IMG/VR virus record: IMGVR_UViG_3300028549_001120
Direction: 5' to 3' (one strand)
DNA: 64,000 nt
From: a virus
Both the position numbers and the translations under genes were made by a program. The notes under the pieces were generated by a model, which made no database searches, was not told where the DNA came from, and saw nothing but the letters and a program-made list of their open reading frames with translations. This document shows positions 2,944 through 60,769 of the stretch, in pieces (the stretch's first letter is position 1; each line of letters starts with the position of its first letter).

Positions 2944-5697
2944 TTAATGGTGTCCCATAGTAATTTGTCTAGTTCCTAAAACATTATTATTTATATCATA
3001 GGCTATAAAAGTAATTCCGCAAGTTTTAGTTGGAGGAATATTATTCAAATCAATCCAAATCATTACATTACTAGAACCTGAATTAAATACTGTGGTAATA
3101 TCTCTTTCTACCCCAACTGCCGGTGAATAATATTGCAATTGATTTGCTCCCGGAGCTGCCCCAGCTACTTTAAAATAAAAATCATTTACTTGTGAAGCTC
3201 CAGCTATATTATAATAGTCGGTTCTAGCTACCAATCTATGAACTGCTGCTATAGGAGTTATACTTAATTGTGCAAAAGTATTAAACATTCCAGAACCCCC
3301 AGAAATAATAGTCATAGTCATATTTGCAGAAGGTACATTAGTTGCTGTAAGTCCAAATTGTAGTGAATTGCTCCAATCTGAAATTCCCCCAAAATTGTCT
3401 TTTACTCTTACTCTAAATTCATAAGTTCCAGAACCCCCCATTCCACTTACATTAGGGGGAGAATCTGCAGTTAATGGTAAGCTTGGAATATTTTTTATCG
3501 GATTCGGTGTATTTGGAAAGGTAGAGGAATTTGTATCAATATCGTACCAACCGAATCCATCCCCACTTACTTTTCTCCATTGCCAATGGTAACCTATAAT
3601 TGTACCATCAGCATCAGAACTGAATCCTCCTTGTAACGCTATTGGAAATACCGGATTCGTAAAAGCATTTACAGTATCAGTCTTAGGAGTATCTGTATTG
3701 TCCAGTGCCCATTTAGCAATAGCCGTAGGAAGTAAATTTGAAATTTCAGCAATATTAAATGTAACCTCATCATAAGCAGTATCTCCATTTGAATTTTCCC
3801 CATTTAGCCTTAGTACATAGATTCCAAAAACATCTGTAATAAAGAAAGTGTTTTCAGAATTAATATCATCAATAGTTGGATTAGAACCTGAAGGAGAAGA
3901 TATAAATTCCCACTCTGTATTTGTTACAGTTGCTCCAATACTTTCAACCAATCCATTTAGATTAAATTGTCTATAGGTAATTTGACTTGTTGGACTTCCT
4001 GTTGCATTCCAAATATATCCAACAGCTCTATTTGTTAAGTCTACTTGAATCGTGTTACTTTCTAAAACTAATCCAAGAACTTCACAAACTACTTTTATAT
4101 AATAAAATCCATCCATTCCAGGAGGGGGAGTAGTCATAGTATCAGGAATGTAACCGGCAACCCCTAAAGAAGGGTAGCTATCGAAACGCTTCCAATCATT
4201 CCAAGTATTTCCTGCTTGTGAATTTACTCTTTTTGCATACATTTTGAAGGTTCCGAGATTATTACCTAGTCCTAAAGTTATATTAGCTTGTAATAGTGGA
4301 AGTGAAGAGGGATATACTCCCTGTGGTCCACTACTTCCGGGTGGTAAAACTCTTTCAATGCTATTTAAAACTGGAGTTCCCCATCTTAAAAGTCTATGTG
4401 ATTCACTTACGTCTACTCCTGCATTCACATTTAAAATTGAAGGGGGTTGAACAATATCTGCTTTCACCCAGAAAACAATCCAACCTCTATTTGGCAGAGT
4501 ACTAGAATTATAATCTGTATAAGTTCCTGCACCCATATCAATAGTGATATTAGAACCATCAATAGAAATATTAGGAAGATTTCCATTTGCATTGTTATCT
4601 CTTCGTGTATTGCTATCATCAATAAAAATACATTCAGAGGCTACGACTTTTGGCCACCAATCATAAGTATGTGGAATTATGATAGTTAAATTTGAATCCA
4701 AATCCCAACTACCGATTTCTACAATTTGTTGATTTAATCCTAAAAATTGTTTTAGTTTAAAAGGAGTAACTATTGTAGAATCATCTGTACCAGCATCAAT
4801 TTCTGCTTGTGTAGCAATCCTTGCAATCCCAGTTCTTGATTCAGTAGCTGTACGATTATGGAGGGTTTTCGGAGTGATAAATTTACCATCTTCTGTACCT
4901 AAATTTACTTCAGCTTGACTAGCTGTTCTGTTTTCAATTTTCTTTTGAAGCTTTAAAGGAGTAATTGCTCTTTGGTCGTCTACTCCGTCTAAGGTTTCAG
5001 TTAAATCTGCAATTTCAATTACTCCTCTATTAGTTTCTGTTGCTGGGGGAGTATTTGTTGCAATTGCCCAATCTACATAATATTTAGTAGCTGCATCTTG
5101 AGACTGGGTAGGATTCTGAAGATTTATAATTTTATTGCCTTCTGCACTTAAATCAGTAATAAAGAATCCATTTTCTTTTTCAATAAAATCGTGATTATTT
5201 GCAAACGTGGGAGCTTTATACTTCGTAAAAATTGCACCATTAGAAAGATTATTACAATTGTCTGGCAGATATAATTCCCCAATCGGAATTTGAATTGAAG
5301 GATTAGTCAAATCCGGGACTACTCCTATTGCTGTACCCTCAATTATTTTATAAATTCCAGGAATTCCCCCTTGAAGCTCTTTATATTCGTGTTCAAATAC
5401 GATTAAATCGATTCTTGAAGTTGTACTTGGAACTACTGTAAGTTCAATTTGTGCATCTTCTTGAACTACCACTCCTTGCTTAGTTACCAATACTCCAAAA
5501 TTAGAACTGAAAGTTTTATCGATTTTAGTTCTAATTGCTCCAGTAGTGGTATGTTGCAATAATAATTGTAGATTGTTAAAGTATGGGTCGAATCCCCTAT
5601 AAACCCCAGCATCTATCAATCCTATGTGCCAACGGGAAAGGTCGAACGTGCTATCTTCGTCCAACCAATTCCAAAATCTTTTTTGTGTTGTACTCAT
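2944..5697 (-). CDS. Tail fibre protein
   Basis: 917 aa. Carries the motif GNKIINLQNPTQSQDAATKYYVD and three tandem ~30-aa repeats ending ITP-x-x-L, as in many phage tail fibres. Lies downstream of the baseplate genes. Confidence 0.8.
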   Translation of the reverse strand: MSTTQKRFWNWLDEDSTFDLSRWHIGLIDAGVYRGFDPYFNNLQLLLQHTTTGAIRTKIDKTFSSNFGVLVTKQGVVVQEDAQIELTVVPSTTSRIDLIVFEHEYKELQGGIPGIYKIIEGTAIGVVPDLTNPSIQIPIGELYLPDNCNNLSNGAIFTKYKAPTFANNHDFIEKENGFFITDLSAEGNKIINLQNPTQSQDAATKYYVDWAIATNTPPATETNRGVIEIADLTETLDGVDDQRAITPLKLQKKIENRTASQAEVNLGTEDGKFITPKTLHNRTATESRTGIARIATQAEIDAGTDDSTIVTPFKLKQFLGLNQQIVEIGSWDLDSNLTIIIPHTYDWWPKVVASECIFIDDSNTRRDNNANGNLPNISIDGSNITIDMGAGTYTDYNSSTLPNRGWIVFWVKADIVQPPSILNVNAGVDVSESHRLLRWGTPVLNSIERVLPPGSSGPQGVYPSSLPLLQANITLGLGNNLGTFKMYAKRVNSQAGNTWNDWKRFDSYPSLGVAGYIPDTMTTPPPGMDGFYYIKVVCEVLGLVLESNTIQVDLTNRAVGYIWNATGSPTSQITYRQFNLNGLVESIGATVTNTEWEFISSPSGSNPTIDDINSENTFFITDVFGIYVLRLNGENSNGDTAYDEVTFNIAEISNLLPTAIAKWALDNTDTPKTDTVNAFTNPVFPIALQGGFSSDADGTIIGYHWQWRKVSGDGFGWYDIDTNSSTFPNTPNPIKNIPSLPLTADSPPNVSGMGGSGTYEFRVRVKDNFGGISDWSNSLQFGLTATNVPSANMTMTIISGGSGMFNTFAQLSITPIAAVHRLVARTDYYNIAGASQVNDFYFKVAGAAPGANQLQYYSPAVGVERDITTVFNSGSSNVMIWIDLNNIPPTKTCGITFIAYDINNNVLGTRQITMGHH

Positions 5698-6761: not shown

Positions 6762-7589
6762 TTAGGGGATTAATTTATTTATAAGTTTAAATTTTTCTGG
6801 GTGCTCCATTTTCACAATAGATTCAATTCTAGTAAACCAATTGTCATCGTGTTTTGCTCCCCATATATGAATACATCCTAACTCATTCATTTTATCTATT
6901 ATGAAAGGTTCCGATAAATAATTAGGTTCTATATTCATTTGTGCTGCTACTGTTGCCGCTATATACTGTTCAAAAATTACACAATATAATCCAGCAACCC
7001 CAGTTTGGGTGATTAGCTCTTGATTATTATTAACTAATTCAAATGCTTGCTTACAATATTCTTTATTATATTCAAGATTATTACAAAGGTAAATTCCGCA
7101 ATTTAAAGCATAGGTAACATTTCCCCAACTATCTGGTAAAATTCCATTTTTACTTAAGTGTTCGTATTGTCCTCTGTAACTATTTTCGAACCAGTCTGCT
7201 GCTTCTTTATTCTGGAATAAGATTTCGGATTGTAAAAACTTTTCAGCTAATGGTTGAAATAAAATAAAATCGTTATCTATATGAACAAAAGGTTTATCTT
7301 GTAATTGATAGGCTTTAATTTTACCTAAAGCCCATAATTTTTTGTTATATCCCTTTTCATTCAATTCGTCCAAATCTGTCCTAATACTGGTAAACGGAAG
7401 TCCAAGTTCTTTGAATAATTCTGCAGATTTACTATCTGTAACTATTTCAACCTCTTCGAACCATTTAGCAGCTTGGGACACTGCAAGAACCCAACTATAT
7501 AAATGGAATTTTGGATTTTTCCAATTAGTTGCTGCAATTAGTGCATTTCCTGTAGTGTCCCAAAAACTAAATACTGCTTTTTTTATCAT
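6762..7589 (-). CDS. Hypothetical protein with a DxD-like motif (possible nucleotide-sugar transferase fold; weak)
   Basis: 275 aa, soluble. KPFVHIDNDFILF has a hydrophobic strand followed by D-x-D. No other motif recognised. Confidence 0.35.
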   Translation of the reverse strand: MIKKAVFSFWDTTGNALIAATNWKNPKFHLYSWVLAVSQAAKWFEEVEIVTDSKSAELFKELGLPFTSIRTDLDELNEKGYNKKLWALGKIKAYQLQDKPFVHIDNDFILFQPLAEKFLQSEILFQNKEAADWFENSYRGQYEHLSKNGILPDSWGNVTYALNCGIYLCNNLEYNKEYCKQAFELVNNNQELITQTGVAGLYCVIFEQYIAATVAAQMNIEPNYLSEPFIIDKMNELGCIHIWGAKHDDNWFTRIESIVKMEHPEKFKLINKLIP

Positions 7590-8899
7590 TATATTATGGC
7601 ATTAAAAGTTACACTTAAAGTTGTTAAATCCAATAAGTCTTCGTTCTCTCCACTTGGTAGTATAATCCTTCCTAAATTTCCGCTAGGACTCCCTGCATAA
7701 TTTAATAGTAATTCTGTAGCTACTAAGTCTGTAAAATTATACAAAGTATTATAATATCCTAGGGTACCATACAAAATTGCGTTTCTTTGTTCGTTTTGTA
7801 ATGCTCTTTGGTTTATGAGTACATCGTGTATTGCCCCGTTTCTTAAAACTAATAAATCTTTATTAGTTTTAACAAAAGTTTTCATAGTTGTACCCACTTT
7901 GTGTAAAATTACTCTCTCAATCAAGAAGTTAGGGTTTTGGGGTATGGTACTAAAATTAGTTAATATTTGTCGTTTCCAAATATATTGTCCAGAAGTATAT
8001 AAAATTCCACCAGCATTATATGCTGGAATAGAAATTTGTATTTCCTTAATATCGTCTAGGTTTATAGTTTGTGTTGTAAATCTAAATGTTCCATTAATAA
8101 ATTGTGTTGTATTAAAAGGTATTAAATCTCCATTATAATTTAAAAGATTCCCACTCCAAGAATTAACTTGACTAATTCCAGTTGAACTAAATTCTCCGGT
8201 TAAAATATCCGTTCCCTCTAATTTTGCAATTCTAGCGTATGGTCCCATTTGTGCTCCTCCAAATAAAGCATCATTAGAAGTTCCTATGGGTAAATAATGT
8301 GCATTTAGCCAAGCATCTATAACTCCTCCGCCACCTCCATTAGAACCTTCCCCAGAACCCGAACCACTTCCAGAACTTGCTGAAGTTTCTCGCACTCTAC
8401 ATAATACTAAAGGAACTTCTTTTGTACCTTCTAATCTAAGCCAAAAAGCATCTCCAGGTTTTAATCCCATTTCAATTGCTTTTAAGTTTGCTCTATATTC
8501 TAAAGCTACTACAAATCCAGAACCATATAAATCTTCTACGTTAACGATAGGCAAATTATTTAGGCAGTTTTTGAAAGAATTACAATTATTTGTATTCTGA
8601 TTCAATAAATATTCCAAAATACTTGCTCCTCCTAATTGTCCTAATCCAGCTTGAATTTCTGTAGTATTTAAACTACCAAATGCAAGTTGCTTGATTAAAT
8701 TCAATTCTTGTAAAGTCTGTCCTGTTAAAGGTACCCATTGATTTGTTATAAAATCAAAATACATAAGTTGGTACGACACTGGAGTAGTATGTAATTGTTT
8801 TGCCCAAATTACATATCTCTTTTCAGTACTACCATCTGCTTCTTTTGGAGGATTGATTCCTCGAACCACTCCTGCCACGTTCCCTAAATTTTTAGCCAT
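7589..8899 (-). CDS. Tail fibre / distal baseplate structural protein
   Basis: Start moved to the ATG at 8899 (MAKNLGNV), giving an 8-nt overlap with the upstream stop. A Ser/Gly linker (SGSGSGSGEGSNGGGGG) separates two domains. Lies in the fibre block. Confidence 0.55.
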   Translation of the reverse strand: MAKNLGNVAGVVRGINPPKEADGSTEKRYVIWAKQLHTTPVSYQLMYFDFITNQWVPLTGQTLQELNLIKQLAFGSLNTTEIQAGLGQLGGASILEYLLNQNTNNCNSFKNCLNNLPIVNVEDLYGSGFVVALEYRANLKAIEMGLKPGDAFWLRLEGTKEVPLVLCRVRETSASSGSGSGSGEGSNGGGGGVIDAWLNAHYLPIGTSNDALFGGAQMGPYARIAKLEGTDILTGEFSSTGISQVNSWSGNLLNYNGDLIPFNTTQFINGTFRFTTQTINLDDIKEIQISIPAYNAGGILYTSGQYIWKRQILTNFSTIPQNPNFLIERVILHKVGTTMKTFVKTNKDLLVLRNGAIHDVLINQRALQNEQRNAILYGTLGYYNTLYNFTDLVATELLLNYAGSPSGNLGRIILPSGENEDLLDLTTLSVTFNAII

Positions 8900-32895: not shown

Positions 32896-33714
32896 TCATT
32901 TTTTATAGAAAAATAATTTTTGTTCTGGTCTTAGGTAAAATCCATCCTTAATTCCTTCTAGAAATGCTGCATTTTTAGGATTCTGTAATTTCATAGGTTG
33001 TGTAGTCAAATTTTCAAAATCTTTTTCAATAGCCGATTGCAATTCAAGTGCTGTAGAAGTCAATATAAGCCCAGAAGTTTCTATTTGTTTACAATCTTCT
33101 ATACTATCTTTTAAGATTTGGTTGTAGAATCCTGTAATTACTCCCTCATAGTAAGATTTTTTAAATTCACTTTCATTCATTACAACTCCGTCTTTTATCA
33201 GTCTATCAAAATTATTAAGTATATAGGCACGTTCGAATTTTCTACTTAATCCTTTTTTTACATTCTCTAAGTAAGTTGAATATCTAGCTCTTCTAAGTGC
33301 TCTGTATTTTTTAAGGAGGATTCTAAAAAATTCTATAACAAGCTCACGATATTCTTTTTTCCCATACACATACAAATACATTCCAATCAATACAGATTTT
33401 CCCTTTACTTCTGACTTATAACTTGAATAATCTTTTTCAGCTATTACTTTACAAAAATATTTTTCTGAAAGTAATTGCATTATACTCCAAGGCCAGTGTA
33501 ATATATCTTCACATTCTCCTTGTGTATATCTTATTACATCGCGTTCTACTGGATTATTTTCCTCGAAGCAATGGTTTTCTAATTTATATTGTTTGATTAG
33601 CTTATTCGCCATAGATACAGCTACTAAGACTTCATTCTCAGTAGCTGCAGAATCTCTAGCCATTGCCATTAACTTTTTGATTCTCTCTATAATTTTATTC
33701 CCCTTCATCTCCAA
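32896..33714 (-). CDS. DUF2786-like protein, paralog B
   Basis: N-terminus IIERIKKLMAMARDSAATENEVLVAVSMANKLIKQYKL matches the DUF2786-type motif and the neighbouring paralog. Confidence 0.55.
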   Translation of the reverse strand: MEMKGNKIIERIKKLMAMARDSAATENEVLVAVSMANKLIKQYKLENHCFEENNPVERDVIRYTQGECEDILHWPWSIMQLLSEKYFCKVIAEKDYSSYKSEVKGKSVLIGMYLYVYGKKEYRELVIEFFRILLKKYRALRRARYSTYLENVKKGLSRKFERAYILNNFDRLIKDGVVMNESEFKKSYYEGVITGFYNQILKDSIEDCKQIETSGLILTSTALELQSAIEKDFENLTTQPMKLQNPKNAAFLEGIKDGFYLRPEQKLFFYKK

Positions 33715-34540
33715 TCATTTTAGTGTTGTGGTCTGTTTTTCCATCCTTGATTCCTTCTTGAAAAGCTTCCTCACTGTAGATAACTGTATTTCCTAGCTTA
33801 TTGGATTCTTTTATTTTATTTTGGAATAATTCTGGTAACCTTAATGCTATCAATTCGTCGTGTCTTTTTACAATCAATCCCCAAGTATTTCTATCTGATT
33901 CAATTTGTAAAAGTTCGCTTTGTTGGGATTTCAAATAAGCTTTTATCCCTTTGATTGTACCAGCTAAATAAGAGGTTACCCAAGTTGGCTTTGCTGTCAT
34001 TTGTCTAATTCCTTGGAAATATTGTACTGTAATTCCTTTGGTATCAAGCCCCATTGCTTTTAATTCAGCAACGAGTTCATTTTTTCTTTTTACTTGATAT
34101 TCCTTGTATCGGATTTCTGAAAGTGTAAGGAATTTCTCTACAGTAGTTTCGTAAAGTTCTTTTACAACCATTCTATTTTCCTCCGTACCTACTATTGAAA
34201 GTCTTACTGCTTTTGTATCTTTCCAATTAGGTGCATCAAAATCATAATTCGTTCCGTGGTATATTTTGCAATTGTAAAAATTTGCGATTGTGTCAAGTAA
34301 CTCCCATTCAAAATTAGTGGATTTGTATTTGAAAGATTTCCAAAGTTGTGAAAAGATTACTTCCTTATTTATATCTGAAGGGTGGATTTGAATATCTCCC
34401 TCCTGAATATTATGTTCCATCATTAGCTTCTGAGCCATCTTCATACAGATTTCTACTTCGTTTTCTGCTGAAGCTGGGTCTTTCGCCTTAGCTAACATCT
34501 TTCTGATTCTTGAAAGTATTTTATTGTCTACTGATTCCAT
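33695..34540 (-). CDS. DUF2786-like protein, paralog A
   Basis: N-terminus ILSRIRKMLAKAKDPASAENEVEICMKMAQKLMMEHNI. Same architecture as 32896..33714. Confidence 0.55.
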   Translation of the reverse strand: MESVDNKILSRIRKMLAKAKDPASAENEVEICMKMAQKLMMEHNIQEGDIQIHPSDINKEVIFSQLWKSFKYKSTNFEWELLDTIANFYNCKIYHGTNYDFDAPNWKDTKAVRLSIVGTEENRMVVKELYETTVEKFLTLSEIRYKEYQVKRKNELVAELKAMGLDTKGITVQYFQGIRQMTAKPTWVTSYLAGTIKGIKAYLKSQQSELLQIESDRNTWGLIVKRHDELIALRLPELFQNKIKESNKLGNTVIYSEEAFQEGIKDGKTDHNTKMIGDEGE

Positions 34541-34981: not shown

Positions 34982-35395
34982 TTACAACTGTATTTTTATA
35001 CATTCAATTCCGGCTTTCCTTAAGAATTCTAATCCTGTAGTGTCTCTGTACTCTTCTAAATAGAAAACTTTTATGATTCCAGATTGGTAAATCAATTTAG
35101 CACATTCTGTACACGGACTTAATGTTACATATAATGTAGAACCTTCCGAATCTTGATTGCTTTTTGCTATTTTAGCAATAGCATTAGTTTCGGCGTGTAA
35201 TACATACCATTTAGTTGTTCCATCATCTAATTCGCAAGCATTTTCGAATCCTCTTGGCGTGCCATTGTACCCATCAGATATAATAGTTTTGTCTTTTACT
35301 AATAAACAACCTACCTTTCTCCTTTCACAGTGAGACATATTAGCCCATTCCTGAGCCATTTTCATATAAGCAATATCGAATTTATTTATTTCCAT
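34982..35395 (-). CDS. dCMP deaminase
   Basis: Zinc-binding motifs HAETNAI and PCTECAKLI, plus GYNG. 137 aa. Confidence 0.85.
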   Translation of the reverse strand: MEINKFDIAYMKMAQEWANMSHCERRKVGCLLVKDKTIISDGYNGTPRGFENACELDDGTTKWYVLHAETNAIAKIAKSNQDSEGSTLYVTLSPCTECAKLIYQSGIIKVFYLEEYRDTTGLEFLRKAGIECIKIQL

Positions 35396-46900: not shown

Positions 46901-47204
46901 AATATTTTATTTTATCAATCATATAACTCTCATCAAACTTTACTCCATTTGATTTTAAAAAGATGTAGTGGGTTTCAAATAAATATTTCATATAATGCTT
47001 TTTGTCCCCGTATTCTACGTGCTCTTCTCGAGTAACTGCCATTAAATTTTCAATCCGGTCTTTGTCTCCTAAAGGATTTCCCCCGCTGCCTTTGCACTCG
47101 ATATGGTGAATATCTACTGCTCTATTTCCGGATATTTCGGAGGGAATAAAATCTTCCCCCGAATATCCTAACGCTTTCATATAAATTTTTGTATGATTTT
47201 TCAT
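46887..47204 (-). CDS. HNH endonuclease-like protein
   Basis: AVDIHHIECKGSGGNPLGDKDRIENLMAVTREEHVEY (H-H ... N ... H). ATGA overlap with thyA. Confidence 0.55.
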   Translation of the reverse strand: MKNHTKIYMKALGYSGEDFIPSEISGNRAVDIHHIECKGSGGNPLGDKDRIENLMAVTREEHVEYGDKKHYMKYLFETHYIFLKSNGVKFDESYMIDKIKYYEGQ

Positions 47205-48370
47205 TTAAGTCCTGTTGAAAGTTTTGCTTTAATATGTGGATGCGGATTGTAACCTTCTAATCTAAATAAATCCGAATCCCATTGTTGTATTGAGTCTAGG
47301 AATAATTTTATGGATTCCTCTGCAGTACAATCTTTATGATTACAGTTATCAATCATATAATGGAATTCATCCTTAAATTCTAAAGTTGGTAGGTCCTTAA
47401 TATCTCTAGACAATTGCTCGTCTACCTGTTCTTTATGATTTTCATAGATATGTACATCCCCGAAAGTATGTATGAATTCCCCTGGTATCATATTACAGAA
47501 TTTTGCAATTATTTCAGTAAGCAAAGAATAACTAGCTGTATTATATGGAACGCCTAAGAATATATCTGAACTTCTTTGATACATCTGGCAATCTAAATAG
47601 TATTTTGGAACTTTATGTTTATCTAAAAATTCCATATATTCAGTTTCAGACATTACATTCCTATTCCAATATTCGTTACTAATTTGCTGTGTTATTAAAT
47701 CATACCGGTCTTGATTTGATAATGGTCTGCAATTGAATTGAACTAAAGCGTGACAAGCATTTAAAGCCATTTGATTTAAAGTAGCCGGATTCCAAGCTGT
47801 AATAATGTGCCTTCTACTTTCCGGATTTTTCTTTAATCCTAAAATAAGTTCATAAAGTTGGTCTACTCTTTCTGAGGTCTCTACAACACTTCCGGGGGAT
47901 TTAATTATAGTTTCTAATACCCTATCTCCCCAATCCCTCCATAATTTACCATATTGAATTCCACAGTCCCCAAAAATGTAACCATTATTGAAATGGGTTT
48001 TCGAAAGTTCATTTAATCCCATTACAGATTCACGTCTTACAATCTCTACAAAATCTTCAAATGTTACTGAATTTTGACTAATAGCTTTACACGATTTTAA
48101 ATAATAGTTATAAGCATCTTCATTCCAGATATTACAACCATTCTCTACTAAGAATTTAATATTGGTATCGCCTTTCAAAAACCAAATCAATTCTATTACA
48201 ATATTCTTGAATGAAAGTTTTTTGGTTGTAAGTAATGGAAAACCTTTACTTAAATCGTGTCTAAATTGTGCACCGAATAAACTTATTGTTCCGGGCATAT
48301 TTTCTCTTGCTGGGGATTTATAAGTTCCCTTAGATTTAATCTCTTCTAAAAGTTTATGATACTGTTCCAT
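47201..48370 (-). CDS. thyA: Thymidylate synthase (ThyA) with three insertions
   Basis: GFPLLTTKK, ELIWFLKGDTN, SRRHIITAWNP, catalytic ALNACHALVQF, MYQRSSDIFLGVPYNTASYSLL, GDVHIY. 389 aa versus about 264 for E. coli ThyA. Confidence 0.85.
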   Translation of the reverse strand: MEQYHKLLEEIKSKGTYKSPARENMPGTISLFGAQFRHDLSKGFPLLTTKKLSFKNIVIELIWFLKGDTNIKFLVENGCNIWNEDAYNYYLKSCKAISQNSVTFEDFVEIVRRESVMGLNELSKTHFNNGYIFGDCGIQYGKLWRDWGDRVLETIIKSPGSVVETSERVDQLYELILGLKKNPESRRHIITAWNPATLNQMALNACHALVQFNCRPLSNQDRYDLITQQISNEYWNRNVMSETEYMEFLDKHKVPKYYLDCQMYQRSSDIFLGVPYNTASYSLLTEIIAKFCNMIPGEFIHTFGDVHIYENHKEQVDEQLSRDIKDLPTLEFKDEFHYMIDNCNHKDCTAEESIKLFLDSIQQWDSDLFRLEGYNPHPHIKAKLSTGLK

Positions 48371-52670: not shown

Positions 52671-52697
52671 AAAAAAGTGAAACTTTAACGGTTTCAC
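52671..52697 (-). terminator. Hairpin plus T-run after dut (conserved AAACCGTTAAAGTTT element)
   Basis: Minus strand: GTGAAAC-CGTTAAA-GTTTCAC followed by TTTTTTAGT. The stem changes relative to 38899-38919 are compensatory. Confidence 0.55.
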
Positions 52698-52705
52698 TTT
52701 AATTT

Positions 52706-53152
52706 TTATGCTCCAGTACTTCCAAATCCCCCGGAACCTCTTTCACTCTGATTTAATTCCTCTTCTGTAAATAAATTTGATTCGTCTACCAATTCTACAG
52801 AATCATAAAATACTGGAATTAATATACATTGAAGTAATTTTTTCCCGGGTTGTAAAGTTATAGGAGAGGTTCCTGTATTGATTACATTTAAGTGGATTTC
52901 ACCTGTATAATCTTCGTCAATTACATTAGCTCCGACTACCATTCCTTCTTTAGTAGTAACCCCACTTTTATTATATGCTATTAAAGCATACCCTGTAGGA
53001 ACATTTGCACGAATTCCAGAAGGAATATTGATTCTATCCTGAGGATATAAAATGCAAGGTGCAAAATCGTCGGGTATGAAAAAGTCAATTCCGGCACTTC
53101 TATTGGTTCCTCTTTCTGGTGTTTTTACTGGTCTTACTTTTGATATTTTCAT
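52706..53152 (-). CDS. dut: dUTPase (trimeric family)
   Basis: RSAGIDFF, GANVIDEDYTGEI, C-terminal ERGSGGFGSTGA. Confidence 0.85.
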   Translation of the reverse strand: MKISKVRPVKTPERGTNRSAGIDFFIPDDFAPCILYPQDRINIPSGIRANVPTGYALIAYNKSGVTTKEGMVVGANVIDEDYTGEIHLNVINTGTSPITLQPGKKLLQCILIPVFYDSVELVDESNLFTEEELNQSERGSGGFGSTGA

Positions 53153-54480
53153 TTTGAAAAATTTATTTGATTAAACATATTTTGAAATTCATTTTGATAA
53201 TCTGTCTTATTTAAAGCCATTTTATCATTTCTTAATGGAGTTTTAGTCCTAGATAAAATCTCTACTGGAATTATATCTTTAAAAGTTTCTTTTAAAATTT
53301 TCTTACCCCTTCTAGATTCATAGGGAAGATTTAAAGCATATCTTACAATTTCGTGACTCAGAAAAGGATTACGGATTTCTTTAGTAAATCTCATTCCCAT
53401 TCTATCTAACCTAATATTGTGATAATATGGGAGTTCTGTAAATACATCAAAATTTTGGGTATCTTTGATTTGTGCTCTACTGTACCCAGAAAAAAGTTCG
53501 TCTGCACCGTCTCCAGTAAAGATTACAGAACCCCTACTAAATTCTATCAGTTTTGATTGTTGAAATAAACTTCCCTTTTCTATAGGATATTCGTAGGACT
53601 TAGCAATTTTTTGAATCTCCTGTACATCTCTTAAATCTGGCTTAGAAATAATTTCAATTTCACATTTATAAAAATCTTCAATATAAGGCAAATAAAAAGA
53701 ATCGTTTTGGTTTTCTATTGCTAATAATTGAAAGTTCCCTATAACGCCTAATTCGAATAAAATACCGAGTATAATAGTTGAATCTAATCCTCCGCTAATT
53801 AATAAGGTATTTGAATCAAAATTATTTATCAATCTCATTTGAACTGCTTCTTTCATAAGTTCTAATAAGTTATTTGATTTCGGAGGTCTTTTTAAATCAT
53901 ATAAGATTTTAGAATCTTTTTTAGGAACGATTCCATCAAAATAGTATAGCTTATTTGGTTCCAATCTATATATCCATTGAAAAGGAGTTAAAGAAGTTTT
54001 TTCAACTTCTGTTTGATTGAATTTATAATCTTTAAAATCTTCTTTCAAAATGGCTTTTATTTCAGAAGCAATGCAACCTTCAGTATTATAATAAAGTTGC
54101 TTTTTTCCTAAAGGGTCTGTAAAAGCATAAATCCCTTTAGGGGTTACAATACAAATTGCCCAAAATCCATCCCATTCATTATATTCAGAACCTCCAATAT
54201 TTTCTAGCCAGTTTTCTTTTTCGAAAAAGTTAATCAAATATTGAACGTCATTTTTAAAGTTCCTAGGAATGTTAAAGATTTCCCCATTGAATAATAAATA
54301 ATTCCCATTAGAAAGTTTTATGGGTTGATTATACTCATCGTCTAATAAAGTCTGGAAAGGGAGTTTAAAGTGAGTAAGAGAATAATCCAAAAACTCTACT
54401 GTAGTTTTTTTAACCCCTCTATGTGAAATTTTAGAGGGGTTGCAAAAACCGGACTTATATTGAATTGCTATTCCACACAT
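53149..54480 (-). CDS. Asparagine-synthase-B-like glutamine amidotransferase / PP-loop ATP pyrophosphatase
   Basis: N-terminal MCGI (Ntn nucleophile Cys2), PP-loop LLISGGLDST, FTGDGADELFSGY. Confidence 0.7.
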   Translation of the reverse strand: MCGIAIQYKSGFCNPSKISHRGVKKTTVEFLDYSLTHFKLPFQTLLDDEYNQPIKLSNGNYLLFNGEIFNIPRNFKNDVQYLINFFEKENWLENIGGSEYNEWDGFWAICIVTPKGIYAFTDPLGKKQLYYNTEGCIASEIKAILKEDFKDYKFNQTEVEKTSLTPFQWIYRLEPNKLYYFDGIVPKKDSKILYDLKRPPKSNNLLELMKEAVQMRLINNFDSNTLLISGGLDSTIILGILFELGVIGNFQLLAIENQNDSFYLPYIEDFYKCEIEIISKPDLRDVQEIQKIAKSYEYPIEKGSLFQQSKLIEFSRGSVIFTGDGADELFSGYSRAQIKDTQNFDVFTELPYYHNIRLDRMGMRFTKEIRNPFLSHEIVRYALNLPYESRRGKKILKETFKDIIPVEILSRTKTPLRNDKMALNKTDYQNEFQNMFNQINFSK

Positions 54481-54481
54481 A

Positions 54482-55387
54482 TTATGAAATTTTTTCTAAT
54501 ACAACTCCTACTTGATAGTAAGGAACTTTGACTTCTGGGAAACGTTTTGAGTAAGTTCTCATAAACATAGTTTCTGGAGTGTGTCTGTGAATATACCAAC
54601 CTAAGATTTTAAAATTTGGATTAGCTTCTAAAAAATCCCCCATTACAAATTTTTGAAGTAAAAATGGTTGTTTATTTTGAATACAATCTTTAATCAATGT
54701 GATAAATTTCCCACCTACTTTTAGATTTTTAGTAGCTGCTGTAAGAGTTTTAGTCATTTCTGGTCTAAAATCTCGTTTCCAATGTAAAATCCCCAAAGAT
54801 TTTTCTGCATTATAGTTATTAGTTTCAAATCCCTTTTCAGAATCTTTTTTAGGGTTCATAGGAGCATCTGAAGTAATATTGCCACTTATAATAGGATAGG
54901 GAAAGCCTGTGATTACCAAATCCAATTTGTCTTCTAAAGTAGGGAGAACTTCTCTACAATCTCCGTGTAAAACTTTCGTAAAAGCTTCTCTAGGATAGGA
55001 TTTTTTGATATGTTCTAAATTGTCTTGTAAAAGTTGATTGAATTCTACTTCTACCCCTATTGAATTTCTACCTTGTAAATATGATTCAATCATAGTAGTT
55101 CCAGAACCTACAAACGGGTCTAAAACTATTCCACCTACAGGTGAAAAGTGTTCTACTCCAAAAGAATATCCTTGGAAGTGTCCTTCGTCTAAATGTTTTT
55201 GCTCAGACTTAGGTCTGTAAGCTCTTCCACAATTTCTAGAATAATATTTACCTTCCCTGTTACAGTAAATTTCACCAAAAAATTTATGTTGTTTTAAGTC
55301 TTCCCAATGGAAGTCTTCTGGAATTTCCATTCTGAATTCTAATGATTCTCCTGGATTATTTAATTTGTTTACATATACTGTGCTCAT
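54482..55387 (-). CDS. SAM-dependent amino-methyltransferase-fold protein with motif I before a degenerate motif IV
   Basis: VLDPFVGSGTTMIESYLQGRNSIGVEV (motif I), then HGDCREVL...DLVITGFPYP where D/N/S-PP-Y/F is expected. Confidence 0.55.
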   Translation of the reverse strand: MSTVYVNKLNNPGESLEFRMEIPEDFHWEDLKQHKFFGEIYCNREGKYYSRNCGRAYRPKSEQKHLDEGHFQGYSFGVEHFSPVGGIVLDPFVGSGTTMIESYLQGRNSIGVEVEFNQLLQDNLEHIKKSYPREAFTKVLHGDCREVLPTLEDKLDLVITGFPYPIISGNITSDAPMNPKKDSEKGFETNNYNAEKSLGILHWKRDFRPEMTKTLTAATKNLKVGGKFITLIKDCIQNKQPFLLQKFVMGDFLEANPNFKILGWYIHRHTPETMFMRTYSKRFPEVKVPYYQVGVVLEKIS

Positions 55388-56232
55388 TTTAATCTTTTTT
55401 TAAGTTCGTATAAATCTGATTTGAAAATATGAAGGGACTGAATATGGAAAGTAAATCGTCCCGGTTTTACTTTATTCCAATCTAATTTTGAATTCGAATT
55501 TTTTAATGATTCCAATACAAAATATAAAAGTCTAATTGCAAGATAAATATCATTTTTGAAGTGACGTATATAATCGCAAGAACGAAGATAGTAAGTTATG
55601 TGAAGATAACCTTCACGATAGGAAAATAAATATCCTAATGTACACGGAACACGTCCTTCGTGAACTACTCCAGTATCTTCTGGGAACCAAATTGGTAAAT
55701 AAGCTTGACGAGTTGTTGGATTAGAAGACAAGTGGTTTATCAAATCTTTTAAATCCCCGTAGGGGTATCGTATACCTAAATTATTTGGGTGAGTATGGTC
55801 CTTAGGAAAATCAGTAAAATCTAATTTCTTAAAAGGGTATTTTGAATCTCCTTCAAGTTCAATCATCAACGTATTTCCAGCTTTTTTAGGCCAGAATCGT
55901 TCTTGATATGTGTGGGTGAAAATTTCTTTTCTATACTCGTCTTCTTTATAATAGGGCCAATCTTTATAAGTATTACCTGGATTTGAAGGAATTCCGGAAA
56001 TACGCTCTTCAAAATGATTATCTGCCCAAGGTAAATCTGGACTGCATTGATTCTGTAGAATTTCTAAAGTGTCTGGAATATTACATCTAAAAGTTCTATC
56101 AAAAATTTCAATCATCGGGGTTTTTAATTCAAGTCCCTGCCATTTTTCGGGTTGAATTTCTTTAGCATTAGAAGATTCAAACAATCTACCTGCTTCAACT
56201 ATAATTGCTCTAGGATTTGGAAATATCTTCAT
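55384..56232 (-). CDS. Second thymidylate-synthase-fold protein (dNMP C5 methylase/hydroxymethylase candidate)
   Basis: TRQAYLPIWFPED ... RVPCTLGYLF ... YYLRSCDYIRHFKNDIY ... SLHIF aligns by eye with ThyA SRRIIVSAWN ... APCHAFFQF ... LYQRSCDVFLGLPFNIASY ... DTHLY. Confidence 0.6.
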   Translation of the reverse strand: MKIFPNPRAIIVEAGRLFESSNAKEIQPEKWQGLELKTPMIEIFDRTFRCNIPDTLEILQNQCSPDLPWADNHFEERISGIPSNPGNTYKDWPYYKEDEYRKEIFTHTYQERFWPKKAGNTLMIELEGDSKYPFKKLDFTDFPKDHTHPNNLGIRYPYGDLKDLINHLSSNPTTRQAYLPIWFPEDTGVVHEGRVPCTLGYLFSYREGYLHITYYLRSCDYIRHFKNDIYLAIRLLYFVLESLKNSNSKLDWNKVKPGRFTFHIQSLHIFKSDLYELKKRLK

Positions 56233-56524
56233 TGTCTAGTATTTTTTGGAATTCTGGAAATAACGGGACTTCATTTGTACCTAATCCTGGGATTTGTTCT
56301 GGTTTATTTCTTAAAAAATTTGCCATTTTCTCGTACCAATTTACTTTAATCAATTCTTGATTTACATCGTCTTTTTTGCCTAATCTTGCTCTATACTTAA
56401 AAGCATTCATTTCACAAAAAAGCATTACTGCTTGTGTACCCCAAATTGCTTCAAGTTGGTGGATTACATTTATTCGTTGGTCAGAATAATGTTTTGCGTT
56501 TCCTTTGTTATCGTAATTACTCAT
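56210..56524 (-). CDS. DUF3310-like phage protein
   Basis: KHYSDQRINVIHQLEAIWG...FCEMNAFKYRARLGKKDDVNQELIKVNWY resembles the conserved DUF3310 pattern. Confidence 0.5.
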   Translation of the reverse strand: MSNYDNKGNAKHYSDQRINVIHQLEAIWGTQAVMLFCEMNAFKYRARLGKKDDVNQELIKVNWYEKMANFLRNKPEQIPGLGTNEVPLFPEFQKILDNEDISKS

Positions 56525-58117: not shown

Positions 58118-60769
58118 TTATTTTTGAAAATATTCGTCTAATGGTTTCATATCTCCCCAAGATATTTCTGAAACTTCAGCATCCATCTTCATTTTTACTT
58201 CTCCTGGGAAAATCTTAAAATATAATTCTATAGGTGGATATTCACAAGCTTTTACAATAATTGGGTGAACATATTCAAACATATCTTTTTTAATATAAAA
58301 GAATATTGAATCGTGAACAGTATTGAAAAAGAAAGTGCCTTCTGGTAACCTTTGTCTAAGAATGGCAGCTGAAAATATTGCATATTCTCCTGAAGTTCCC
58401 TGAATTGGCGAATTTATTGCTGCTCTTACATCCATTCCATAAGCACCTGTTTTAGGGTCTGCAGTTTGAATATTTAGCAATCTTCTTTTTCTCCCGAATA
58501 AAGTTCTTACATACCCGTATTTTTTTGCGAATTCAGTATAAACTTTGTGCCAACTTCTAAGCTTATTATAAGTTTGAAAGAATTTTTTATATTTTACTTC
58601 TGCTTGTTCTTTAGTTAAAATTACCCCATAATTATTTTTAGCATAATCCATATAGCCATCAATACTCATATCATAAACTAATCCAAAATTCGTTCCCTTT
58701 GCAGTATTACGATTTGCTTTGTATTCGTCTTTTGGTAGTTGTCTAAATTCCTCTAATGATAGACTTAATTCATTTGCTGCTGTGATTTCGTGAATATCAT
58801 AATCATTTTTATAGGTTTCAGTCATTACTGGGTCTCCGGAAAAATTAGCAATTACACGTAATTCTGCTTGTGAATAGTCATACTGCAACATATAATAATC
58901 ATCCCCTAGATTTGAAAAGAATTTTTTTACTTGTTTAAGGGTCCAAAGTGCTTCGTCATCTTTGAATTTTAACCTAGCAGGAATATTTTGAAGGTTTGGA
59001 TTTCGTGAACTTAATCTCCCGGAAGTAGTACCCGTAAGTAGGAAAGAAGTATGTACTTTTTTATCTACATCCATTCTTTCTAAAAGTCCTTTATAGTAAG
59101 TACTAATCATTGAACTTATAGAGCGATATGCAAGTAATTTATCCATAAAAGGGTGGTGAAGTTCATTCAAATATTCCCTTTTTGTTGTCCTTACATATTC
59201 TTTCTTAAATGGGTCATACATAAGTGGAAATTTGAACCCTTTGTCGGAAAATAATAATTCACCGAGCTGTGTTACACTTTTGAAATTAATTCCTTCATAT
59301 AAATTCACCTCACCAGTTTTCAATTGTTTTAACTGCTCTTTATACTTTCTTTTAAGTGCCGTATCTTTCCCAGGGAATTTTATTTCCTGGGCTTCTAATT
59401 TAAGGGTCAAAGCATCTATGGAAGATTTTAATTTTTCTTTGGATTGTTCTAATTCAAATTTCTTTACTTCCGGGAAAGCTAGAAGTTCATTCATTTTAAT
59501 TTCCAAAAAACCTTCAGCTTTTTCTATAGATTCGTAAATTAATTTATCGTCCAACTTTGCTCCAAAATGTTCTGCATCAAATAAAGCTAAAAATGCTGGC
59601 ATACTAAGATTTCTATAAAGTATATAAAGTCTATGGTCCATCATTTCTAACTTTTCTAAATATTCTACAGAATGTAATGGAATTCCATTTTCGTCTAGTT
59701 TCCTTCTAATAGTTTGGATTTGTTTTAATGGGAGTTTATCTTCAATCAATAAATCCTCGAAATAATCCCTTAGTCTAAGTGTTAAGTCTGTATCTAATGC
59801 AGCATATCGAGAAAGTAAATCTAAAGGAACCTCATCCCATTTATATTTGCCAACCCCGTCTTCATACCCAGTAAATTTGATAAAATATTTTCTAGCAAGT
59901 TCCTTTAATCCATTTTTAGTATTTTCGTCTAAAATATGGCTCATAATCATAGTATCATCGAATCTTCCATCAAATTTTTTGCATCCATATTTTACTACCC
60001 AGTGCAAATCAAATTTTAAGTTGTGAGCTATTTTATTTACTTTGGGATTTGAAAAAATCTCTCGTTCTAAAATTTGAAAAAATTCTAAAACATCTTCCTC
60101 AGTAAAAGGAGAATCAAAATGTAAAAGTGGTAAAATATAAGAATATCCGTGCTGGAAAGAAATAGAAAGAATTGTAGCTTTTTGCTCTTCACGGAACCAA
60201 TCGAGTCCTGTTGTTTCAAAGTCAAAACAAAATGTTCCAGTTTGTTTACAAAATTCTAAAATTTCTAAAAACCTAGATTTTTCAGTAATAATTTCATATT
60301 GAGTTTCACTTTTAAAATCCATTCCATTTGCTAAGAATAACGCTTTATTAGTGGTATCTAAAAGCTCTTCATTTTTATCAAATCCTTGCTTTTCATATAA
60401 CCTTAAAGAACCTAAGTAAAATATTGGAAACTCTTTTTCTCCTATTTTATAAGTTGATTGTCTTCCTCTAGATTTTGCAAAAGTATTATTCGATAAAAAT
60501 TCGGTTGCAGATTTACCAAAAACCATAATGCAAGTAGGATTCAATTCAGTTATTTCAGATTTAATAGTTTCCCATCTATCCCAGAATCTTACGGATTCTA
60601 CAAATTCTTTTGTAGTTACCTGTCCTTTAGTTTTAGGCCTTTCACTGAGTAAAAAATCCCCATTTACATCCTTTCCTAATTCTAATCCAAATAATTTAGC
60701 CCAAGTATCTAATTGTGCTAAAGGGGTTGAATATTCCCCTTCATAGATTACATATATTTTAGTCTGCAT
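58118..60769 (-). CDS. Family A DNA polymerase with 3'-5' exonuclease domain and an extra N-terminal domain
   Basis: Exo motifs FDFETTGLD, HNLKFDLHW, YAALDTDL. Pol motif A DYSQAELRVIA, motif B RNTAKGTNFGLVYDMS, motif C VHDSIFF. About 170 aa precede Exo I. Confidence 0.9.
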   Translation of the reverse strand: MQTKIYVIYEGEYSTPLAQLDTWAKLFGLELGKDVNGDFLLSERPKTKGQVTTKEFVESVRFWDRWETIKSEITELNPTCIMVFGKSATEFLSNNTFAKSRGRQSTYKIGEKEFPIFYLGSLRLYEKQGFDKNEELLDTTNKALFLANGMDFKSETQYEIITEKSRFLEILEFCKQTGTFCFDFETTGLDWFREEQKATILSISFQHGYSYILPLLHFDSPFTEEDVLEFFQILEREIFSNPKVNKIAHNLKFDLHWVVKYGCKKFDGRFDDTMIMSHILDENTKNGLKELARKYFIKFTGYEDGVGKYKWDEVPLDLLSRYAALDTDLTLRLRDYFEDLLIEDKLPLKQIQTIRRKLDENGIPLHSVEYLEKLEMMDHRLYILYRNLSMPAFLALFDAEHFGAKLDDKLIYESIEKAEGFLEIKMNELLAFPEVKKFELEQSKEKLKSSIDALTLKLEAQEIKFPGKDTALKRKYKEQLKQLKTGEVNLYEGINFKSVTQLGELLFSDKGFKFPLMYDPFKKEYVRTTKREYLNELHHPFMDKLLAYRSISSMISTYYKGLLERMDVDKKVHTSFLLTGTTSGRLSSRNPNLQNIPARLKFKDDEALWTLKQVKKFFSNLGDDYYMLQYDYSQAELRVIANFSGDPVMTETYKNDYDIHEITAANELSLSLEEFRQLPKDEYKANRNTAKGTNFGLVYDMSIDGYMDYAKNNYGVILTKEQAEVKYKKFFQTYNKLRSWHKVYTEFAKKYGYVRTLFGRKRRLLNIQTADPKTGAYGMDVRAAINSPIQGTSGEYAIFSAAILRQRLPEGTFFFNTVHDSIFFYIKKDMFEYVHPIIVKACEYPPIELYFKIFPGEVKMKMDAEVSEISWGDMKPLDEYFQK

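Follow-up and report, generated by a model that had tools for sequence, protein, structure and literature searches.

The closest described system to the one considered here is CmoA/CmoX/CmoY of Synechococcus phage S-B43, which makes 5-carboxymethylcytosine and its glycine amide (PMC12783734). In CmoX, Arg350 replaces Asn304 of HhaI and contacts the carboxymethyl group of carboxy-S-adenosylmethionine (Cx-SAM), mirroring the engineered N374K substitution of M.MpeI; the AsnB-family ligase CmoY amidates 5-carboxymethylcytosine in DNA, and a glutamine-hydrolysing CmoY cluster is predicted, not shown, to use ammonia and form a primary amide (PMC12783734). Here we analyse a gene block in a 64,000-nucleotide stretch of viral DNA (IMG/VR record IMGVR_UViG_3300028549_001120; ‘the window’ denotes this whole stretch), encoding a thymidylate synthase (TS)-fold protein (TSL), a permuted methyltransferase (MTL) and an AsnB-type amidotransferase (ASNB). 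The chances appear evenly balanced that this module is a phage pathway replacing or decorating virion-DNA cytosine with a C5 side chain that ends in an amide. The block and its recurrent neighbour comprise:

55384-56232, minus strand: TSL, 282 amino acids (aa), a divergent thymidylate-synthase-fold protein, predicted to modify dCMP at C5
54482-55387, minus strand: MTL, 301 aa, a circularly permuted beta-class N6/N4-type S-adenosylmethionine methyltransferase, predicted to carry out N-methylating tailoring on DNA
53149-54480, minus strand: ASNB, 443 aa, a glutamine-hydrolysing AsnB-type amidotransferase
52706-53152, minus strand: dut, a trimeric dUTPase-family gene (Pfam dUTPase, E 8.8e-18), which recurs as the module's fourth gene

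An earlier note on this DNA, made from the sequence alone, had described three open reading frames (ORFs) packed tightly between dut and a DUF3310 gene, and this arrangement holds: overlaps of 4 nt join TSL to MTL and ASNB to dut, the DUF3310 gene and the start of TSL share 23 nt, and 1 nt separates MTL from ASNB. All the motifs it had quoted (RVPCTLGYLF, YYLRSCDY and HFKNDIY in TSL, DPFVGSGTT and ITGFPYP in MTL, and MCGI, SGGLDS and GDGADELFSGY in ASNB) are present in the translations. A scan for promoters and terminators inside the block gave no signal above shuffled expectation, so the block is consistent with one transcription unit. PHROG assignments for the block genes agree with those from Pfam.

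Likeness to the S-B43 system lies, on the module's side by proposal, in a cytosine C5 target, a carboxyl handle and ATP-dependent amide formation by an AsnB-family enzyme; in addition, relatives of the module include a homologue of C5-methyltransferases with a basic Lys at the position of CmoX Arg350. The window, however, has neither CmoA nor a C5-methyltransferase, and the module has a TS-fold enzyme, nucleotide-pool genes and MTL, none of which is found in the described system. The relatives' C5-methyltransferase-like partner combines GH(T/P)EC with Lys, where CmoX is defined by SPPC with Arg350, making the two analogous rather than identical, and ASNB resembles CmoY at family level only. 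The earlier note's view that the amidotransferase and methyltransferase-like pair fits no described hmC or hmU pathway therefore needs qualifying by this partial analogue, although a literature search found no description of the TS-homologue/AsnB/methyltransferase combination or of the candidate bases proposed below.

TSL matches the Pfam profile Thymidylat_synt (PF00303; E 2.8e-7, 30.4 bits against a cut-off of 24.3) and phrog_160 (E 4.6e-30). Its AlphaFold model (predicted local distance difference test score, pLDDT, 85.8), submitted to Foldseek as the earlier note had proposed, was matched best by the CMP hydroxymethylase MilA (TM-score 0.66), next by the HY126 dCMP hydroxylase and then by ordinary TSs, with probability 1.0 for MilA and for many TS structures (PDB entries 9IQU and 9IQC were identified through the Foldseek descriptions). 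MilA is also the best profile match among solved relatives (E 2.6e-7). Pfam, Foldseek and residue mapping thus agree in placing TSL, with its Pro-Cys and RSxD segments, in the TS fold, as first proposed.

Among TS homologues, N177D (ThyA numbering) marks use of dCMP, Leu at position 143 goes with methyl and Asp or Glu with hydroxymethyl products, an acidic residue at 143 is thought to admit or activate water, and D169N is diagnostic of flavin-dependent 5-hydroxy-dCMP synthases; in E. coli ThyA, L143 and G173 lie within 6 Å of C5 (PMC13326640). TSL keeps equivalents of Cys146 (the catalytic Cys197), R166, S167 and D169 (Arg217, Ser218 and Asp220), R126, W80, Y94 and H207, and has Arg194 at the position of L143, His224 at G173 and Asp228 at N177. 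The last assignment settles a question that the earlier note had answered by counting residues: the TSL family profile aligns ‘RsCDylrhfrdDiY’ to MilA ‘MRANDAFRGAVSDVF’ without an indel and with Asp opposite the Asp of MilA, and position 177 is Asp in 23/23 module TSLs compared. The best-scoring TS chain for the same profile, L. casei 1njc, has Asp at the aligned position as well. Position 143 is Arg in every module member compared; T4 gp42, MilA and the ViI-type dUMP hydroxymethylase all have Asp there, together with Gly173, and E. coli ThyA and the window's own ThyA have Leu. Position 173 is His in nearly all TSLs, and of the 120 closest homologues 105 have R143, D169, H173 and D177 together.

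These residues indicate that TSL acts on cytosine nucleotides and that the pocket which determines its product is basic, not hydrophobic or acidic. With MilA and the 5-hydroxy-dCMP synthases (RB69 gp48, HY126 AfhB and DLP3 gp80) TSL shares a cytosine-specific TS fold and Asp177, but MilA has Asp143 where TSL has Arg, and the synthases combine D169N with flavin where TSL keeps Asp169. Three assignments were rejected: a canonical dUMP-methylating ThyA, on account of Asp177, Arg143 and the absence of C-terminal folate-closing residues; a classical hydroxymethylase, since Arg194 stands where gp42, MilA and the ViI-type enzyme have Asp; and a 5-hydroxy-dCMP synthase, given the retained Asp169 (RSCD, against RSQN in 9iqu). 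Scores against the NCBIfam TS equivalogs were 37.4 (cut-off 174.6) and 27.9 (cut-off 327). As Arg143 and Asp169 fail the defining features of these classes, TSL would be neither a TS, a hydroxymethylase nor a hydroxylase.

The TSL family is large (3664 proteins at E<1e-5) and extends to cultured phages of Serratia (Serbin), Pseudomonas (PMBT14), Brevundimonas, Gordonia, Microbacterium, Streptomyces and Mycobacteroides, whose homologues, annotated ‘thymidylate synthase’, are 35–44% identical to TSL and adjoin thymidylate-kinase-like, dUTPase_2, dCMP deaminase and PolA genes without an ASNB. In Serbin (gp51; locus L008, 4192-5001) and MW202777 (L009, 3923-4921) a degenerate TS-like protein bearing ‘GFCMQT’ and ‘YYRSTE’, and matching nothing in Pfam or NCBIfam, is encoded directly upstream of the TSL homologue; in such ASNB-less cultured phages it may be a heterodimer partner of TSL. 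A separate context, that of cluster P0254, has a TSL homologue adjoining a 233-aa class-I methyltransferase (Methyltransf_11/12/23/25, the profile type given by CmoA) and a C5 DNA methylase, with a fusion of uracil-DNA glycosylase (UDG) to PolA downstream and ASNB absent. This context may link TSL to Cx-SAM chemistry.

AsnB-type enzymes adenylate a carboxylate at the expense of ATP, after which glutamine-derived ammonia attacks; members of the family (PF00733) are known to adenylate carboxylates, not alcohols. ASNB matches Pfam Asn_synthase (E 1.6e-25, 91 bits against a cut-off of 21) and GATase_7 (E 5.2e-7), and its closest solved relatives by profile comparison with PDB are human ASNS (E 2.7e-30) and E. 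coli AsnB (E 1.3e-24), as expected of the complete glutamine-hydrolysing enzyme recognised in the earlier note. MCGI supplies the nucleophile Cys2, NGEIFN the Asn-Gly-Glu oxyanion element and SGGLDS the PP-loop, with GDGADELFSGY as the GxGxDE element of acyl-adenylate formation; the catalytic residues and a downstream Arg/Asp/Lys set are invariant among 18 relatives, and the Lys and Arg of acyl-adenylate chemistry are kept. A bona fide asparagine synthase was nevertheless rejected, because scores fall below the NCBIfam asparagine-synthase cut-offs (126.8 against 267.1 bits for asn_synth_AEB, TIGR01536; 81.7 against 499 for PRK09431) and ASNB, at 443 aa, is missing about 100 C-terminal residues of true AsnB, whose full-length architecture spans some 520–560 aa.

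Relatives of ASNB number more than 1046 proteins at E<1e-10 and are encoded on 468 IMG/VR stretches, a figure obtained by an alignment-based scan, a single-sequence query having returned nothing. Searching about 50,700 cultured-phage records with ASNB (tblastn) gave no real homologue, only distant cyanophage asnB, at a locus without neighbours related to the module, and the same approach did not detect CmoY of S-B43. A distinct group of relatives of about 470 aa is found on large phage contigs of up to 149 kb (L072, L078, L079, L083, L086, L088 and L092–L094). At these nine loci (the L072/L088 type) TSL is absent within 6 kb, and the neighbouring genes have no informative Pfam match except for an opposite-strand RimK-like ATP-grasp gene.

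Recurrence of the genes together was scored with our own profile hidden Markov models (HMMs), a co-directional neighbour within 2.5 kb of ASNB being counted as linked across 83 distinct loci. TSL was linked in 70/83 (84%), a trimeric dUTPase-family gene in 56/83 and an all-alpha MazG/dUTPase_2-type NTP pyrophosphatase in 51/83, compared with 14/83 for MTL and 9/83 for a C5-methyltransferase-like (C5MT-like) gene. The core is therefore TSL plus ASNB, usually with a dUTPase and/or an NTP pyrophosphatase, with MTL and the C5MT-like gene as accessories. The three-gene block of the earlier note thus survives as a TSL/ASNB core, commonly joined by a dUTPase-family gene, MTL being demoted to an accessory tailoring step. 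In 53 of about 95 loci, TSL and ASNB occur with neither methyltransferase within ±6 kb. The commonest form is carried on contigs of about 36 kb, some from human microbiomes, in the order DUF6378, NTP pyrophosphatase, TSL, ASNB, small ORF, dUTPase. One 90%-identity cluster of ASNB relatives (P0189, 94% identical to L042 6001-7347) holds 8832 member sequences, placing the ‘pair-only’ form in a very abundant phage lineage.

Gene order is far from fixed. The window and L001 share DUF3310-TSL-MTL-ASNB; L003 has DUF3310-MTL-TSL-[C5MT-like]-ASNB-dCMP deaminase-dUTPase; L004–L006 and L010 have MTL-TSL-ASNB; L011 has TSL-ASNB-MTL-x-ThyX; and L098, from a phage with a T4-like capsid gene, has TSL-x-ASNB-MTL (x, another gene). 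Co-occurrence that survives shuffling into at least four orders, on unrelated phage backbones, strongly supports a shared function, and lends support to the undescribed pyrimidine, here cytosine, hypermodification block that the earlier note had thought possible. Flanking genes in relatives are concerned with nucleotides: MazG/dUTPase_2 NTP pyrophosphatase, dUTPase, dCMP deaminase (L003, L010, L015 and L103), ThyA or ThyX, and dNMP-kinase-like genes. The DUF3310 gene adjoins the module in L001, L003 and L013 and lies about 5 kb upstream in L010. Among the about 50,700 cultured-phage records, none carries ASNB or MTL. One locus, L014, has MTL and ASNB with no TSL in range; one of its genes (3635-4582) fuses a P-loop dNMP-kinase-like domain with a domain of the UDG superfamily, and another, just downstream of ASNB, is QueF-like (7365-7790). 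Similar kinase::UDG genes occur in L054, L057 and L095.

MTL has the hallmarks of a beta-class methyltransferase in an altered order. The Pfam match to N6_N4_Mtase (E 2.3e-10) covers residues 78–115 only. In profile alignments residues 79–121 pair with the C-terminal motif I/II region of beta-class N6/N4 methyltransferases (2zie/DpnA/CcrM) and residues 142–242 with their N-terminal motif III/IV region, ‘TSPPY’ standing opposite ‘TG(t/f)PY’. This two-piece alignment in swapped order confirms a circular permutation, which the earlier note had sensed in a motif I placed before motif IV; the beta-class order, IV before I with (D/N/S)PP(Y/F), is not matched. With the beta class (PF01555) and HemK/PrmC, families that methylate sp2 amino or amide nitrogens, MTL shares motif I (DPFxGSGTT), the motif II Glu, motif III and, in its relatives, NPPY. 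It differs from beta-class enzymes in the permutation, in the (N/T)G(T/F/P)PYP of the window branch, in specific N- and C-terminal elements and in having no close structural neighbour: the AlphaFold model (pLDDT 88.2) adopts a class-I methyltransferase fold for which Foldseek returned generic class-I methyltransferases only (TM < 0.5) and no functional clue.

An HMM search of 1.84 billion representatives placed 61 clusters in the MTL family (E<1e-30), 24 of which have canonical NNPPY at motif IV and about 30 (N/T/S)G(T/P/F)PYP, including the window's ITGFPYP; since relatives keep NNPPY, MTL descends from an NPPY-type N-methyltransferase. Four His and a Lys-Asp pair after the strand that follows motif IV are invariant in the family. 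ASNB was present in 12/12 distinct MTL contexts examined, MTL never being seen without it, and all six informative IMG/VR loci from the MTL search encode TSL as well as ASNB. A tblastn search of the cultured-phage records with MTL gave no real homologue, only motif-I matches.

The C5MT-like gene joins TSL and ASNB in L003, L013, L015, L020, L023, L028 and others. Its product is just 21–25% identical to ordinary phage C5-methyltransferases and has GH(T/P)EC (not PPC) at motif IV, DNL for ENV and an invariant motif X, ‘QTGK(F/C)MP’. Examples, each with an invariant Lys at the position of HhaI Asn304 and CmoX Arg350, are:

L013, 4013-5245: C5MT-like gene
L015, 8063-9253: C5MT-like gene
L003, 7718-8854: C5MT-like gene

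Profile alignment sets this motif-X Lys (‘QTGKFMP’) opposite the Asn of HaeIII ‘IGNAVP’. Another register, suggested by ungapped pairwise alignment, was rejected: it relies on an Asn that is not conserved and gives up the Q-x-G...P-V and helix matches. By virtue of this Lys the partner bears the signature expected of a cytosine C5-carboxymethyltransferase, and these proteins are, on sequence grounds, candidate Cx-SAM carboxymethyltransferases outside the SPPC/Arg350 definition of the CmoX paper. The ASNBs of loci that have the C5MT-like gene group with those of loci that lack it, at no less than 50% identity, which suggests one kind of ASNB substrate. In at least nine representative clusters the C5MT-like protein, its Lys kept, is fused as the N-terminal part to a C-terminal MTL with NNPPY, which links MTL both with an enzyme of DNA cytosine and with the TSL/ASNB module:

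P0352 (= L103, 7001-9208): C5MT-like::MTL fusion, in the order ASNB, NTP pyrophosphatase, x, fusion, x, TSL, dCMP deaminase, SSB, PolA
P0323, P0339, P0350, P0351, P0353, P0358, P0359 and P0362: further C5MT-like::MTL fusion clusters

A second point of comparison is phage T4, whose 5-hydroxymethylcytosine (hmC) set consists of gp42 dCMP hydroxymethylase, gp56 dCTPase, gp1 kinase, cd deaminase and glucosyltransferases. The window likewise sets an Asp177 TS-fold enzyme beside a separate TS, a dCMP deaminase and a dUTPase-family enzyme, all of them assigned by Pfam as the earlier note had read them, and relatives add all-alpha NTP pyrophosphatase and dNMP-kinase-like genes. The nucleotide-level genes concerned, beyond dut, are:

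47201-48370, minus strand: canonical ThyA, 389 aa (Pfam PF00303, E 4.6e-86), with Asn177 and Leu143 retained, a source of dTMP apart from TSL
34982-35395, minus strand: dCMP deaminase (Pfam dCMP_cyt_deam_1, E 2.1e-26), for diverting dCMP to dUMP as in T4
56210-56524, minus strand: DUF3310 protein, 104 aa (Pfam DUF3310, E 5e-9; PHROG ‘nucleotide kinase’ families)

The window differs from T4 in the Arg143 of TSL, where gp42 has Asp, in that no glycosyltransferase was found in the block, in tailoring by an amidotransferase and a methyltransferase, and in having no clear dCTPase or gp1-type kinase in the window. The T4-type logic that the note had recognised therefore stands for the nucleotide-level genes, but 5-hydroxymethylcytosine need not be an intermediate, position 143 being Arg and not Asp.

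Thymidine hypermodification offers a third. Its pathways involve 5-hydroxymethyldeoxyuridine (5-hmdU), 5-HMUDK, aGPT-Pplase/AADT and N-alpha-GlyT, and their clusters are known to include amidotransferase and amidoligase genes without an assigned role (PMC5889632, PMC8989533). The module is alike in that a TS homologue would take the first step ahead of tailoring, and in the amino-acid-like groups carried on the C5 methylene in those systems (PMC5889632, PMC8989533), but they act on uracil or thymine and need a P-loop DNA kinase and aGPT-Pplase, whereas TSL is of cytosine type. No P-loop kinase was found in Pfam scans of the block and 27 other window ORFs or in a P-loop search of the window ORFs; aGPT-Pplase was not recognised in the same Pfam scans, no search having been aimed at it.

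A pathway can be proposed from these elements. In a first step TSL would act on the mononucleotide dCMP, Cys197 attacking C6 and a carbon substituent being attached at C5 before replication. This substituent would carry, or directly acquire, a carboxylate, as suggested by the basic pocket formed by the invariant Arg194 with His224, and by the obligatory AsnB-type partner. Candidate products are 5-carboxymethyl-, 5-carboxymethylaminomethyl- and 5-carboxy-dCMP. The carboxymethyl group would be the handle that CmoX makes; the carboxymethylaminomethyl group could arise by glycine trapping of an exocyclic methylene, as with MnmEG on tRNA (5-carboxymethylaminomethyluridine, cmnm5U) and phage N-alpha-GlyT; and direct carboxylation could be pulled forward by the ATP-dependent amidation. 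In a second step the modified dNMP would be phosphorylated, possibly by the DUF3310/gp1.7-like protein together with host kinases, and then polymerised, with dCMP deaminase, dUTPase and ThyA holding dTTP normal, as in T4; the dut product would be the presumed source of dUMP, and possibly of dCMP.

In a third step ASNB would adenylate the carboxylate through its PP-loop and amidate it with ammonia from its own glutaminase, giving a neutral primary amide. The chemistry is established for the family; the putative substrate may be nucleotide or DNA. The logic is that proposed for the glutamine-dependent CmoY cluster. In a fourth step MTL would N-methylate the product on DNA, either at the carboxamide nitrogen (HemK-like, as on glutamine) or at cytosine N4. 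In related phages the Lys-bearing C5MT-like enzyme probably adds the same carboxymethyl handle after replication via Cx-SAM, and would act on cytosines that had escaped replacement. Candidate bases are 5-carbamoylmethyl-cytosine, its N-methyl derivative and a glycinamide-type side chain, and any one specific product, taken singly, is improbable. The modification would probably serve to evade restriction and other defences directed at DNA. More tentatively, TSL might represent a fourth TS-fold product class, after methyl, hydroxymethyl and hydroxyl, placing a carboxyl-bearing unit on dCMP; with ASNB (and MTL) it would then yield an uncatalogued DNA base by a pre-replicative, Cx-SAM-free route.

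Several points weigh against this proposal. We know of no TS-fold enzyme that installs a carboxyl-bearing group, and TSL retains the folate contacts Asp169 and Trp80, which fits the ordinary methylene-tetrahydrofolate donor, giving CH2 alone. His173 is not universal, being Phe in L103. Homologues with Arg143 and Asp177 occur without ASNB in Serbin, PMBT14, Gordonia phages and L101, so the TSL product must be viable without amidation. The window MTL has Gly for the catalytic Asn/Asp/Ser of motif IV, and may for this reason have altered methyl-transfer activity or none. CmoA, the Cx-SAM synthase, and CmoB were absent from the window ORFs, about 100 related loci and L103 (phmmer, E. coli queries). 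Searches of the window ORFs gave no recognisable dCTPase, MazG-like pyrophosphatase or P-loop dNMP kinase; the DUF3310 protein, which matches residues 134–186 of T7 gp1.7 (pairwise BLASTP, E 3e-5), covers the C-terminal third of that nucleotide kinase only and, sharing just this domain, is a weak kinase candidate. Finally, the ‘pair-only’ contigs were viewed over ±6 kb, leaving room for further partners beyond.

The alternative that survives best, unlikely as it is, has a methyltransferase install the handle: TSL would give 5-methyl- or 5-hydroxymethylcytosine, MTL would place a carboxymethyl group from host Cx-SAM on a nitrogen or on the 5-CH2OH oxygen, ASNB would amidate that group, and the C5MT-like enzyme would do the equivalent job in other phages. 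The motif-IV Gly of the window branch would leave room for the larger group, the C5MT-like partner has a Cx-SAM-type Lys, and MTL is always found with ASNB. Set against this are the 53 loci with TSL and ASNB but neither methyltransferase in range, the ordinary NNPPY of the fused MTL domains and the absence of CmoA; N-carboxymethyltransferase candidates were, moreover, not found by the authors who described CmoX (PMC12783734).

Rather unlikely, too, is a route through hmC followed by amination, with TSL as a dCMP hydroxymethylase, ASNB adenylating the 5-hydroxymethyl oxygen and displacing it by ammonia from glutamine to form 5-aminomethyl-dC, and MTL methylating the amine, as in 5-methylaminomethyluridine (mnm5U) of tRNA. 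The three hydroxymethylases compared have Asp143 where TSL has Arg, the AsnB family is known to adenylate carboxylates rather than alcohols and ASNB keeps the acyl-adenylate residues, and the Lys-bearing C5-methyltransferase partner and its fusion to MTL would be left unexplained. In favour of the route, hydroxymethylases are the closest solved relatives of TSL, an MTL derived from an amino-methyltransferase fits N-methylation, phage hypermodification commonly ends in cationic amines, and activation of a 5-hydroxymethylpyrimidine followed by amine displacement is established in thymidine hypermodification (PMC8989533).

It is doubtful that the genes share no pathway at all, TSL being an ordinary dCMP methylase or hydroxymethylase, ASNB an auxiliary metabolic gene for asparagine supply and MTL an orphan protective methyltransferase, brought together merely by the clustering of replication and nucleotide genes. 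True asparagine synthetases are indeed the best database relatives of ASNB, cyanophages have asnB-like genes outside any such module, and the nine large-phage loci have ASNB with no TSL nearby; but TSL is a neighbour of ASNB at 84% of the loci, although gene order is shuffled and the backbones are unrelated, MTL was never seen without ASNB, C5MT-like::MTL fusions lie inside the module, ASNB falls far below the asparagine-synthase cut-off and lacks the C-terminal region, and the TSL active site is non-canonical. Very improbable is amination of a ring oxygen, in which ASNB, acting like GMP synthetase or TilS, would turn a TSL-made 5-substituted dUMP into the matching dCMP: lactam oxygens are adenylated by PP-loop enzymes of other families and the module sits among nucleotide-level enzymes, but no AsnB-family member is known to do so, Asp177 in every TSL points to cytosine and not uracil as substrate, and a single N177D change would reach the same product.

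The module, read here as a phage pyrimidine hypermodification, has a realistic chance of containing new TS-fold chemistry. Hypermodification of phage DNA decides which restriction, CRISPR and other DNA-targeting defences are escaped, and its enzymes have repeatedly become tools for epigenetic sequencing and DNA labelling. If true, the amide-terminated pathway would provide a new reaction outcome for thymidylate synthase, among the best-studied of folds, and a case, the first with a defined genetic context, in which a DNA base side chain is amidated in a glutamine-dependent way; the MTL family appears dedicated to tailoring the amide-bearing side chain. The module would also occur widely, with very abundant phages of the human gut among its carriers. 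Since it is common in uncultivated phages, DNA modified in this way could distort the preparation of metagenomic libraries, base-calling from nanopores and the prediction of host range.

The window sequence is identical to a contig of about 66 kb in NCBI whole-genome shotgun project JFJP01, and a search of cultured phages for DNA nearly identical to the block gave no match. Directly downstream of dut, in the gap on the coding strand, lies a 27-nt stem-loop (52674-52700; 11-bp stem, 5-nt loop), the sole hairpin where the gene block ends, which may be the operon-end terminator. NinB, SSB and PolA genes lie upstream of the block. The window PolA (58118-60769) has an N-terminal extension of about 150–190 aa without a Pfam match; a UDG domain, suspected there because relatives have UDG::PolA, gave no Pfam hit either. 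SP-10 and SPO1-like Bacillus phages encode its nearest cultured-phage polymerases, and identity to any cultured-phage polymerase is at most 30%. SP-10 DNA contains hypermodified thymidine, and in SPO1 DNA 5-hydroxymethyluracil (hmU) replaces T. The window ThyA is about 100 aa longer than usual and its profile matches are broken into several stretches, implying internal insertions. Elsewhere in the window, two adjacent paralogues (32896-33714 and 33695-34540) each start with a DUF2786 domain, one of them also containing DUF7168.

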